Assembly (NCBI GenBank): GCA_964016885.1
Contig: OZ024747.1
Span: 39,370,001-39,434,000 of the forward strand
Source of the DNA: Eledone cirrhosa
Taxonomy: Eukaryota
Direction of reading: 5' to 3'
DNA length: 64,000 bases
The notes beneath the pieces are model-generated. The model was not told the DNA's origin. It was given only the letters and a program-made list of their open reading frames with translations, and made no database searches. A program made the translations under genes and the position numbers. This document shows positions 6,598 through 53,935 of this stretch, piece after piece (within the stretch, counting starts at the first letter, position 1; each line of letters begins with the position of its first letter).

Positions 6598-7318
6598 TTA
6601 GAATTGGTGCCCTGAAATAGCGATATATATATGAATGTATATATAGTGTATTTTGCAATACACTGTATGCTTAATTAAAACTATTTAAAAGACTTTACGC
6701 TATTGTTTTAGAGTAGTGACAGTCTCACTTACTTTAATTTTCATCAAACAAAGGAGATAAAGCTGACAGAGCTATGTTTCGCACTTTTTGGTGCTTATCA
6801 AAGCTAACTTCTCTATCTCTTTGCTGAAAATCATGAATGTTTGATTCTTATAGAATTGTAGTAATAATCATGAACTTATTATACAGAGCGGTTGCCGGTT
6901 TGCTGAAAATTAAAGGAAGTGAGACTGTCACTACTCTAAAACAATCGCGTAAGGTCTTCGAAATGCTTTTAATTAAGCCTATAGTGTATTGCAAAATACA
7001 CTATATATACATTCATATATATATCGGTATTTCAGAGAACCAATTCTAATTTTCAATTCCTGCTTGACCGGCAACTGCTCTGTATAATCAGTTCCTGATT
7101 ATTACTAGAATTCTATAAGAATCAAACATACATGATTTTCAGCAAATAGGTGGAGTAGTTAGCTTTGATAAGCACCAGAAAGTGCGAAACAGGGCTCTGT
7201 CAGCTTTATTTCCCCTGTTTGCTGAAAATTAAAGTAAGACTGTTACTACTCTAAAACAATAGCGTAAGGTCTTCGAAATGCTTTTAATTAAGCATACAGT
7301 ACATTGCAAAATACACTA
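6598..7318. mobile_element. Retrozyme-like ~320 bp HHR unit: one inverted copy (6598-6900) plus ~1.3 direct copies (6901-7318), flanked by (TA)n
   Basis: tgctgaaaattaaag recurs at 6901 and 7220. The left segment is the reverse complement of the right. HHRs lie at 6761-6805 (-) and 7161-7205 (+). Confidence 0.8.
7161..7205 (+). ncRNA. Type I hammerhead ribozyme, U3-A8 core variant
   Basis: agct-TTGATAA-gcac/cagaaa/gtgc-GAAA-cag/ggct/ctGTC^agct. All three stems pair, and an outer helix ttttcagcaaatagg/cctgtttgctgaaaa extends it. Confidence 0.8.
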
Positions 7319-7491
7319 TATATATATATATATATATATATATATATATATATATATATATATATATATATATATATATATATATATATATATATATATA
7401 TATATATATGTATATATACGTAGGTCCCGGGTTGAGTCGGGGATAACCACAGTAGGTAAGGTACTCAATACATGGCAGAGTAAATTTTTTT

Positions 7492-7607
7492 TATTTTATA
7501 GAAGGAGCTTCTACAGGACTAGTACTGTTTCATTCAGATGAAATCTTCATGAAGATTTCATCTGAATGAAACAGTACTAGTCCTGTAGAAGCTCCTTCTA
7601 TAAAATA
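7492..7607. repeat. Perfect 116 bp palindrome centred at 7549/7550, made of the 3' half of an HHR
   Basis: The arms are exact reverse complements. Each arm reads TGAAGA-tttca/tc/tgaat-GAAAC...GTC. Confidence 0.85.
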
Positions 7608-7909
7608 TATATATATATATATAAGTATGTATACGTACATACATATATGTGTACAGCCGTACTAAGAGTGAGAAAAAAAATTTCGTTTCATTCTTCTCCA
7701 TATATATATATATATAGAGAGAGATAAATCTACCAAAAGTTTACGGTAGTGTCCAATTCGTATGAAGAACTCAATGTAATCCGGATATCATGAAAAGAGA
7801 ACTTGCATTCAAAAACTATTTTCGGTGAAAAATAAACGGAAAACAGAGTCAAGATAAATTAATAAAACAATGAATAAACAAAGAAACAGTTCCTTATATT
7901 AAAAAAAAG

Positions 7910-8051
7910 TCATCATTTTACGATCGTTTCTAGGATATATATGTGTTAGAGTTGGTATGCATATTCTATAGATCTATGTACAATATTTATACAAACTATC
8001 AGAGGGAATATACATACCTACACATATATATGCTGTCTTCAGAAATAATGA
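7910..8051 (-). ncRNA. Type I hammerhead ribozyme with greatly extended (~105 nt) stem II
   Basis: tcattattt-CTGAAGA-[atatatatgtgt/acacatatatat; ggtatgtatattc/gaatatgcatacc]-GAAACGATCGTA^aaatgatga. Stem I has 9 bp and stem III is palindromic. Confidence 0.7.
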
Positions 8052-50679: not shown

Positions 50680-51595
50680 AATAATACATTATGAAGAGAG
50701 AAGAAACATTAGATATAATTAGTAATAAGATATATCATACCCAAACTGCTTCTATAGTCCCCGACTACGTAGTTTCGTGGCATATTATGCAAAAACACTA
50801 CATCATAGAGATATAGAGTTTTTGTGAGGTCTGCCGACGTATCAAGAGGATATCTCATTAAGGGTTTCAAGACATGTCTGTGATGCGCGAGATAGAATCT
50901 CGAAAAGGCGGAAGGGGAGTCAATCACGTGATACAGCGGTCAAGAAACAGAGCTAAGCCCCTTATAACCCTGAAAAAAATATACCACGGAGGGGGTATGT
51001 ATATCAAAGCCGTAGAAGAGGTGGTTTGAGGAGGTGAGAAGTATGAGTAATGGTAGCTATCCAGCAGTCACTATATTTCAAAGGTTACTCGACCAAAGGG
51101 AGTTATAAAAAATATATAGAGAAACACACAGATACATGCAGACACATACATACACAAGAATATATCCACATATATCCCTGAGTTAGTGGTACCAACCTCA
51201 ACCGATGTTGCTCTATGAATAACTGGGACAAACCAATCCGAATGGATTAGACTGATTCAGTATCAGAGCTATATAATACATTATGAAGAGAGAAGAAACA
51301 TTATATATAATTAATAATAAGATATATCATACCCAACTGCTTCTATAGTCCCCGACTACGTAGTTTCCTGGCATATTATGCAAAAACACTACATCATAGA
51401 GATATAGAGTTTTGTGAGGTCTGCCGACTTATCAAGAGGATACCTCATTAAGGGTTTCAAAACACGTCTGTGATGCGCGAGATAGAAGCTCGAAAAGGCG
51501 GAGGGGGAGTCAATCACGTGATACAGCGGTCAAGAAACAGAGCTAAGCCCCTTATAACCCTGAAAAAAAATACCACGGAGTGGGTATTTATATCG
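50680..51595. repeat. ~590 bp unit x1.5 with an HHR-like variant motif (50758-50811, -)
   Basis: ataatacattatgaagagagaag recurs at ~50681 and ~51273. The minus strand reads tctct-ATGATGTA-gtg..cac-GAAACTACGTAGTC^gggga. Confidence 0.65.
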
Positions 51596-51639
51596 GTTGA
51601 AGTTGGTCCCACTAATTCATGTATATATATAGACATACA

Positions 51640-51955
51640 ATGTAACGGGAGGAAACAATAGCACCACTGACGATGTTGCAGATGTGCAACGAAAGAACTT
51701 TGATAAACTATATATGTGTTTGTGTTTATATTGTATCTGTATTATTTTTGACCGTTGGTCAGTCAATGGCAACATTGAGGACCGAATAAATTAGATTACC
51801 GATATAAAAGACAGAGAAGCGAAACGCGAAAACCAACCAAACAGTGAGTGTGTTCTGTTATTAATTCTGGCAATATTACACAAATATGACCCTCCCCAAG
51901 TATAACAATATTTGTTTCGACACACGATTTCATATAAAAACCTCGCAAAACTAAT
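51640..51955 (+). mobile_element. Solo PLE pseudo-LTR/3' tail with HHR (51663-51704), family of the 3828-6385 element
   Basis: CTGACGA-tgttgca/gatg/tgcaac-GAAAGAACTT^tgat. The downstream sequence matches the inverted 3828-4075 segment. Confidence 0.75.
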
Positions 51956-52010
51956 TCATCGCCGTTATATATATATATATATATATATATATATATATAT
52001 ATATATATAT

Positions 52011-53935
52011 ATGTGAATATAGACATAGAATATTCGAAAATATTCTGTATGTTTATAATAAACATTTTGAAGACCTAATCGCTATAGAATAGAATACGTC
52101 ACGTATTACAATTAGATTCTCGATAAAAGCAAGGGAAGTAATCTACGCGTTTCATTCTTGTTAGAAATCATCAGGACTACATATCCAGTGCTTTTATCGA
52201 GAATGACACAGCTAGAGACTTATAGAATACTTAGCTGTGTACAGGAACTGGTTTGAAAGAGCGGTTGCCGGTCCGGCAGAAATTAGAAATTGGAATAAAT
52301 GCTCTGAAATAGCGATATATATGCGAATATAGACATAGAATATTCGAAAATATTCTGTATGTTTATAATAAACATTTTGAAGACCTAATCGCTATAGAAT
52401 AGAATACGTCACGTATTACAATTAGATTCTCGATAAAAGCAAGGGAAGTAATCTACGCGTTTCATTCTTGTTAGAAATCATCAGGACTACATATCCAGTG
52501 CTTTTATCGAGAATGACACAGCTAGAGACTTATAGAATACTTAGCTGTGTACAGGAACTGGTTTGAAAGAGCGGTTGCCGGTCCGGCAGAAATTAGAAAT
52601 TGGAATAAATGCTCTGAAATAGCGATATATATGTGAATATAGACATAGAATATTCGAAAATATTCTGTATGTTTATAATAAACATTTTGAAGACCTAATC
52701 GCTATAGAATAGAATACGTCACGTATTACAATTAGATTCTCGATAAAAGCAAGGGAAGTAATCTACGCGTTTCATTCTTGTTAGAAATCATCAGGACTAC
52801 ATATCCAGTGCTTTTATCGAGAATGACACAGCTAGAGACTTATAGAATACTTAGCTGTGTACAGGAACTGGTTTGAAAGAGCGGTTGCCGGTCCGGCAGA
52901 AATTAGAAATTGGAATAAATGCTCTGAAATAGCGATATATATGCGAATATAGACATAGAATATTCGAAAATATTCTGTATGTTTATAATAAACATTTTGA
53001 AGACCTAATCGCTATAGAATAGAATACGTCACGTATTACAATTAGATTCTCGATAAAAGCAAGGGAAGTAATCTACGCGTTTCATTCTTGTTAGAAATCA
53101 TCAGGACTACATATCCAGTGCTTTTATCGAGAATGACACAGCTAGAGACTTATAGAATACTTAGCTGTGTACAGGAACTGGTTTGAAAGAGCGGTTGCCG
53201 GTCCGGCAGAAATTAGAAATTGGAATAAATGCTCTGAAATAGCGATATATATGTGAATATAGACATAGAATATTCGAAAATATTCTGTATGTTTATAATA
53301 AACATTTTGAAGACCTAATCGCTATAGAATAGAATACGTCACGTATTACAATTAGATTCTCGATAAAAGCAAGGGAAGTAATCTACGCGTTTCATTCTTG
53401 TTAGAAATCATCAGGACTACATATCCAGTGCTTTTATCGAGAATGACACAGCTAGAGACTTATAGAATACTTAGCTGTGTACAGGAACTGGTTTGAAAGA
53501 GCGGTTGCCGGTCCGGCAGAAATTAGAAATTGGAATAAATGCTCTGAAATAGCGATATATATGTGAATATAGACATAGAATATTCGAAAATATTCTGTAT
53601 GTTTATAATAAACATTTTGAAGACCTAATCGCTATAGAATAGAATACGTCACGTATTACAATTAGATTCTCGATAAAAGCAAGGGAAGTAATCTACGCGT
53701 TTCATTCTTGTTAGAAATCATCAGGACTACATATCCAGTGCTTTTATCGAGAATGACACAGCTAGAGACTTATAGAATACTTAGCTGTGTATCGAGAATC
53801 TAATTGTAATACGTGACGTATTCTATTCTATAGCGATTAGGTCTTCAAAATGTTTATTATAAACATACAGAATATTTTCGAATATTCTATGTCTATATTC
53901 ACATATATATCGCTATTTCAGAGCATTTATTCCAA
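52011..53935 (-). mobile_element. Retrozyme-like tandem array: ~5.7 x 310 bp near-identical units, each with a minimal type I HHR, plus a terminal inverted segment (53791-53935), embedded in (TA)n
   Basis: Exact 310 bp period. HHRs on the minus strand at 52138, 52448, 52758, 53068, 53378 and 53688 (43 nt each): gtagtc-CTGATGA-tttct/aaca/agaat-GAAACGCGTA^gattac. Confidence 0.92.

Follow-up and report, generated by a model that had tools for sequence, protein, structure and literature searches.

Two hammerhead-bearing tandem arrays in Eledone cirrhosa belong to one retrozyme family whose conserved half is a likely signal for a Penelope-type enzyme

For the non-long terminal repeat (LTR) retrozymes of metazoans, circular RNA and cleavage have been shown (PMC7229834), and the U3-A8 covariant of the hammerhead ribozyme is known from Penelope-like elements (PLEs) (PMC4209133). 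As movers of animal retrozymes, PLE helpers have been proposed from co-occurrence and from homology of frog retrozymes to pseudo-LTRs (pLTRs). Among PLEs, in vitro work on the Poseidon element of Anolis showed that its reverse transcriptase (RT) starts at two sites and that both strands are extended (Frangieh et al. 2024, PMC11167929), and endonuclease-positive (EN+) PLEs are described as having copies in inverted orientation and a tail that is often confined to one end (Craig et al. 2021, PMC8557442). In the present study, we analysed a window of 64,000 nucleotides from Eledone cirrhosa (contig OZ024747.1, positions 39,370,001 to 39,434,000; contig C7 of a 3.0-Gb genome), in which (TA)n tracts and retroelement fragments are abundant. 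The window carries two arrays, array 1 at 6597..7318 and array 2 at 52005..53936. Both consist of tandem units of about 310-320 nt, each with a hammerhead motif and with neither open reading frame (ORF) nor LTR, as expected of non-LTR retrozymes (170-400 nt), and the family is dispersed in many copies across the genome. By these features, both arrays are assigned to non-LTR retrozymes of one family, an element kind already known. We consider it probable that the arrays are diverged members of this family and that their conserved half is where a PLE-like enzyme binds the RNA and starts copying. The labels F1 to F6 are given here to non-coding units, and NepA to NepF, NepH, PosG, Hydra and Nem1 denote coding elements, the clade names in the latter being presumed from protein motifs rather than from a tree.

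An earlier note on this DNA had described two otherwise unrelated monomers sharing a module of about 80 nt. The shared motif is indeed present in both arrays, which agree in 62 of its 81 columns (z = 9.3 relative to 500 shuffles), as in the internal copy of array 1 at 7004..7082 (RNA sense on the plus strand) and in one of the five full copies of array 2 at 52258..52337 (RNA sense on the minus strand). The string AGAGCRGTTGCCGGT occurs at 6885 on the plus strand, at 7081 on the minus strand and in five copies within 52258-53498. The orientation relative to the hammerhead is the same in both arrays, as had been claimed, the spelling given in the note being antisense to the ribozyme strand. Neither the extent nor the unrelatedness survived closer comparison: the BLAST match covers 169 nt at 74%, and the global alignment of the two units is collinear across the whole unit, with 63-80% identity in 30-column windows over the first 180 columns and 50-60% over the ribozyme part. 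The ribozyme part alone gave z = 3.3, a score that 1 of 500 shuffles reached. On this alignment, the two repeats are diverged cousins, homologous end to end, within one large family. A 14-mer of the module matched the genome 18,904 times, compared with 3 matches for the control. Clustering at 90% sorted the 62 distinct full units into 16 groups, and intermediate forms of stem I and loop 2 are among them. Among 13 sequences, the distances in the ribozyme domain (mean 0.29) agreed with those in the remainder (mean 0.16; Mantel rho 0.77, p 0.002).

The units carry a predicted type I hammerhead ribozyme, recognised by its motif and helices. The conserved core CUGANGA...GAAA...NUH, or its U3-A8 covariant, is found in both, and no Rfam family matched the units at gathering score, so that the call rests on core motif, helices and covariation. 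The ribozymes of the two arrays differ, as the earlier note stated: array 1 has the U3-A8 core variant with a GUC site and array 2 the canonical C3-G8 core with a GUA site. In array 1, the hammerhead domain at 7136..7228 (plus strand) comprises the outer helix 7136-7150/7214-7228, 15 bp long, and a core at 7165, with the cut predicted after 7201; the left arm has a type I hammerhead-like motif of the same variant at 6765..6801 (minus strand). The cores of the long arm of array 2 lie at 52174, 52484, 52794, 53104, 53414 and 53724. The outer helix on stem I was likewise recovered, with 15-16 bp in both units (z -4.2 and -5.4), and its left-arm copy in array 1 folds less well (z -2.8). Stems I-III, with an open stem I, are supported by covariation, and all 4 of 4 pairs of stem II change on both sides. 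Of the 43 named pairs, 19 vary on both sides across 13 diverse units, a number reached by 0 of 500 shuffles (slid controls gave 4-7); the shuffle test is inflated by the relatedness of the units, and the structure itself came from this alignment. Such two-sided changes affect 15 of 24 pairs in the ribozyme helices versus 4 of 19 in the three downstream helices, where 11 pairs are invariant; stem III and inner stem I were judged by eye, outside these counts. Separately, a tandem family member at L007:1534-1848 keeps stem I and the module intact and shows no recognisable catalytic core; the ribozyme may be dispensable for mobilisation.

In RNA sense, each array is made of two arms placed head to head, with the 3' ends pointing outward into (TA)n; the inverted arm and (TA)n flanks noted earlier are present in both arrays. 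The RNA 3' ends fall at two positions, namely site 1, in a TATATAT patch 131-139 nt past the predicted cut, and site 2, at 160-172 nt, which is 26-33 nt beyond site 1. In the module copy at 7004..7082, the patch of site 1 is at about 7016-7024, followed by the tail to site 2 (7050) and by a conserved segment beyond it. The left arm of array 1 (6597..6899, minus strand, subfamily F1, about one 319-nt unit) ends at site 2 with a 26-nt tail, and its right arm (6898..7318, plus strand, about 1.3 units) ends in a TA patch about 17 nt short of the usual site 1, between (TA)n targets at 6556..6598 and 7317..7418. The long arm of array 2 (52005..53791, minus strand, subfamily F2, 5.8 units of 310 nt, 99% alike) ends at site 1, and its inverted short arm (53790..53936, plus strand) at site 2 with a tail, between (TA)n targets at 51966..52012 and 53935..53972. 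The statement that array ends fall in or beside the module thus stands: three of the four window ends are inside it, and array 1 stops on its right side at another TA patch, which lies about 17 nt before the module.

The tabulation of array ends relative to the module, proposed as a check in that note, gave a strictly non-random picture. In a first sample, the two sites took 62 of the 70 F1 ends and, for F2, 30 of 31, and an exact-pattern search for F2 junctions found 1,168 at site 1 and 1,006 at site 2 genome-wide, with 0 for controls. Among the 100 site-1 and 80 site-2 F2 junctions listed, from the first 222 Mb of chromosome C1, all 55 of 55 outward pairs within 20 kb combined one site 1 with one site 2 (27 expected if independent, p 1e-17). 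When 60 of the 70 unpaired ends were fetched, the partner end was in most cases masked by a point change or by a shift to 166-172. Over all loci fetched, the two-armed arrays were mixed in 57 of 59 cases for F2 and in 38 of 55 for F1-type, none had site 1 twice, two had site 2 twice, and the remaining non-mixed ones showed a broken end or an internal inversion. Inner junctions are scattered along the unit, with some excess in the first 125 nt. This arrangement of two sites, one per arm, is the "tail" signature of PLEs. The far from random end positions suggest that the conserved segment is a likely cis-signal for a Penelope-type enzyme. The proposed role as a PLE recognition or priming signal is consequently retained as far as the segment marks the insertion ends, and abandoned as far as it called for a separate module with a swappable ribozyme. 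Likewise, pairing of the TATATAT patch with the TA target is possible at site 1, where the match to the target is 8-9 nt, and site 2 offers just 1-2 nt (AT/TA). An inverted, truncated partner copy with an optional tail at one end, and insertion into microsatellites like the PLEs of this genome, are features of non-autonomous PLEs that are found here as well, and the units appear to work like one.

The unit variants point to one template per array. Across 53 F2 arrays with at least 3 full units each, 412 of 487 units were the majority variant of their own array, with 28 majority variants among the 53 arrays; the same majority variant was found in both arms in 30 of 35 arrays. The mean number of unit differences was 0.4 within versus 3.3 between F2 arrays, and arms of 20 or more units occur. 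The shared variants fit copying round a circular or re-joined monomer. In the F2 arrays L329, L293 and L273, unit variants with period 3 to period 4 or in blocks were observed, which suggests multimeric templates or later duplication. Across three runs, one 340-nt contig equalled one unit plus 30 nt; a tandem repeat would give the same, so this is uninformative on expression and circularity. A metagenome scan gave 7 exact 19-mer matches, none extending past the pattern, and these were taken as chance.

Herein, the following course of insertion is envisaged. A (TA)n tract would be nicked on its two strands by an enzyme that is probably a dimer. Copying by one active site would begin at site 1, with the TATATAT patch possibly pairing with the target, and by the second at site 2 with a match of 1-2 nt, so that one RNA, probably circular, would give two cDNAs, each primed on a different strand of the target. 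Each active site would copy its way round the monomer, circular or re-joined, as many as 20 times or more, and the two cDNAs would then join at variable ends. We propose that the ribozyme half drifts because only its pairing matters, and that the other half retains its sequence because a protein likely reads it. A fuller version is offered tentatively and is rather less likely than not to hold in all its parts: one dimeric Penelope-type enzyme would prime both strands of the cut (TA)n from two sites on a single circular RNA, rolling round it twice, and would recognise a folded three-helix domain that mimics, and does not descend from, its own terminal repeat, such that this retrozyme family would ride unrelated PLE families, Nem1 earlier and another now.

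Nem1 is the best lead to a helper for the older F1-type subfamilies, and the chances that it is one appear about evenly balanced. Three of the 74 broken or unpaired junctions (54 F1-type, 20 F2) join Nem1 directly, at L087, L330 and L080; these insertions have the retrozyme site 1 at one end and the outer site of Nem1 at the other, and the join in L080 is no more than 4 nt from the predicted hammerhead cut of Nem1. Compared with a background of 0.6% of bases, 3 joins in 54 F1-type junctions give a binomial p of 0.004; the lead rests on these three cases, and one F2 locus with an unreadable inner junction is outside the join count. Nem1, a clade name that we presume, carries a hammerhead motif and is arranged in tandem; its two ends lie at +38 and +103-108, counted from the cut of its own hammerhead, and its tail is about 70 nt long. 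Its protein gave no Pfam match to RT or GIY-YIG, and in the Atlas it groups with PLE-type proteins, its neighbours at 0.95-0.97 carrying HTH_animal, GIY-YIG or RVT_1. The copies of Nem1 (91% identity) and of F1 (94%) are similarly diverged, and only NepA equals F2 in age (99%), in samples biased to best matches. One F2 junction meets F5 through a short TA run.

Several observations weigh against the view that a PLE-like enzyme, with Nem1 as a possible helper of the older subfamilies, moves these arrays. First, a local Nem1 density of 2% would bring the p value of the Nem1 joins to 0.09, later deletions could account for the composite insertions, and single joins to NepC (site 2 with site 2) and to F4 are also present, with no direct PLE join among the 20 F2 junctions. 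Second, Nem1's own end has no similarity to the module, its copies (median 91% alike) are older than those of F2 (99%), and the tails of autonomous elements (NepA 41 nt, Nem1 about 70 nt) are unlike the 26-33 nt of the retrozymes. The module was absent from the 3' ends of ten autonomous families, and similarity to an autonomous 3' end, a further mark of non-autonomous PLEs, was found neither there nor in 174 PLE-coding loci, an incomplete sample of families. In Xenopus, by contrast, 24 of 57 retrozyme families are reported to match annotated elements, nearly all of them PLE ends (bioRxiv 10.64898/2026.07.22.740005). Third, site 2 occupies both ends in 2 F1-type arrays and an end is broken in 15, and the variable ends are spread unevenly over the unit (Kolmogorov-Smirnov (KS) p 0.002). 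Finally, a few arrays have block or periodic variants (ABAB, AABBBB; ABAB occurs in the window), which a monomer circle alone does not explain, and part of the variant pattern could stem from read-through transcription of a homogeneous source array, from gene conversion or from polishing of the assembly.

The alternative that fares best is that of the earlier note, in which an autonomous PLE that the genome still contains would have supplied the module out of its terminal repeat, and recombination would have swapped ribozymes onto that module. We regard this as improbable. An exchangeable ribozyme on a fixed 80-nt module conflicts with the end-to-end collinearity, the intermediates in stem I and loop 2, the compensatory helix changes and the congruent distances; a swap is unnecessary because ribozyme and remainder share one history. 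The core and stem II of the F2 ribozyme are identical to those of the separate family F5 at 26 of 28 nt, which favours the swap idea and leaves room for local exchange, and the relative at L007 combines an F2-like stem I with no recognisable core. As to the source of the module, Xenopus retrozymes match pLTRs (bioRxiv 10.64898/2026.07.22.740005) and the PLE families were sampled, not exhausted: each genome search scored the best 110-150 of 10,000-45,000 candidates, so that families have certainly been missed. Within the families sampled, the module was not found in a 3' tail, and of 281 loci scanned with a profile (1.71 Mb in all; PLE coding sequence in 174), none had it in a PLE 3' end. Six strong matches near a same-strand ORF all lay upstream of that ORF, one being a composite and five (L134, L187, L205, L239, L254) retrozyme arrays separated from PLE ORFs by short TA/CA junctions and regarded as nested insertions. 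A variant-motif search for an ORF-linked module gave 53 matches, and the 30 fetched all continue as a retrozyme unit and none as an ORF. NepA was rejected as a source of the module (no similarity above shuffles), and F6 as an autonomous 3' end, since it is a further tandem family without coding sequence. Our preferred reading is that the feature is real, in all likelihood functional, and represents the conserved half of an old retrozyme family and not a portable 80-nt module.

NepA itself, a young and very abundant PLE with two ORFs (overlapping 455- and 784-aa frames), RT and GIY-YIG, has many intact copies and 4.7-kb tandems; its insertion layout is that of the retrozyme arrays, with its own tail. 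It is represented by an element at L121:3362-8162 and by a fragment at 34324-35124 of the window, and its terminal repeat has a hammerhead-like motif with U3-A8 and with GCAA replacing GAAA. At L163, L164, L157 and L176, the 3' ends of several PLE families show a U3-A8 hammerhead with a CCGG stem III and then an AT-rich patch.

A second alternative, very unlikely in our judgement, is the model of a preprint (bioRxiv 10.64898/2026.07.22.740005), by which the arrays would be satellites: a solo PLE terminal repeat would have expanded at its locus through slippage or unequal crossing-over. The block and periodic variants of a few arrays agree with such growth, whereas more than 1,000 dispersed F2 loci ending at the same two bases, and inverted arms that are both multimeric, share a variant in 30 of 35 arrays and have no coding sequence attached, do not. 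Lastly, movement by a LINE (long interspersed nuclear element) or a rolling-circle DNA transposon, with a merely convergent likeness to PLEs, would agree with the fragments in the window that we take to be LINE-type RT and Helitron-like and with the failure to find a PLE that shares the module. This is the least credible of the three, since two alternative 3' ends, one per arm and head to head in (TA)n, are the pattern of PLEs in this genome and of published PLEs (PMC8557442, PMC11167929, PMC3846280), and the sole repeated composite partner is a PLE-type element.

Several neighbouring features of the window were also recorded. A third family member absent from the earlier note, of subfamily F3, is a single arm at 54676..54888 (plus strand) with a canonical core at 54714, ending in (TA)n. 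PLE fragments of a type that we presume, from protein motifs, to be Hydra occur at 4222-6556, 51500-51966 and 61658-63847. They bear a hammerhead motif of their own and two ends separated by about 66 nt; array 1 and array 2 are each inserted in (TA)n at the end of such a copy. F6 (3300-3716 and 36215-36500) is non-coding and tandem, with units of about 330 nt that carry a hammerhead motif and a long stem I and with two ends at a distance of 30-36 nt; the tail region of F6 weakly resembles the module (z 2-6 by pair), and F6 is likely a distant relative. F4 (32146-34162) consists of hammerhead-bearing units of about 500 nt with a (TA)n run inside the repeat and a TATATAT patch about 137 nt past the cut, as in F1 and F2, with little sequence similarity in that part. 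F5 (7419-7607, and L168:200-815) has a hammerhead core near-identical to that of F2, different flanks, a tail of about 60-70 nt and a long non-coding upstream part, to which no attached ORF was found. In addition, a further inverted insertion lies between (TA)n flanks at 10507-11545, with a palindrome at its centre and a hammerhead-like motif; several copies of a LINE-type RT element of about 4 kb (RVT_1 match) are located at 12557-26067, and broken Rep/helicase frames, presumably Helitron-like, at 38240-42170, where the one frame tested had no Pfam match.

The kind of element found here is known; the strict end pairing and the composite insertions sharpen the mechanism. The family offers base-level genomic evidence that whole arrays are inserted by a PLE route in one event, and the strict rule of one start site per arm fits an enzyme with two active sites. 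No mapping of such ends for retrozyme arrays was found in the literature, consulted mostly as titles and abstract openings; preprint supplements could hold end data. Like the metazoan non-LTR retrozymes (Cervera and de la Pena 2020, PMC7229834), the present family has tandem units of about 300 nt with low GC, a type I hammerhead in each, no ORF, and PLEs in the same genome; what differs in the present genomic analysis is the base-level placing of the insertion ends, with two fixed ends, arms in inverted order and a (TA)n target. The conclusion that retrozymes depend on PLEs is shared with Li, Clavereau and Pollet (bioRxiv 10.64898/2026.07.22.740005), who describe pLTR homology and local amplification in frogs, whereas here no pLTR match was found and the arrays look inserted as multimers in one event. 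Tandem and inverted copies, a 30-40 bp tail that is often restricted to one end and microsatellite targets are shared with EN+ PLEs and with Chlamys elements, e.g. MRC1 (PMC8557442; Arkhipova et al. 2013, PMC3846280), in which terminal repeats likewise act in cis for mobilisation in trans; the non-autonomous Chlamys elements resemble the 3' end of their partner, whereas the present family resembles no partner found. Poseidon, as described (PMC11167929), differs in being autonomous and in starting in an AC-rich stem-loop without homology to the target, whereas the present family has a non-coding template, one site in a TATATAT patch and a strict pairing of one site per arm. Poseidon is similar in that two internal starts downstream of the hammerhead define the tail, both strands of an AT-rich target are cut and extended, RNA 3' of the start sites is required and a dimer is predicted. 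With a 310-nt template, two predicted start positions and named candidate enzymes, the present family might thus be tested by the existing in vitro assay.

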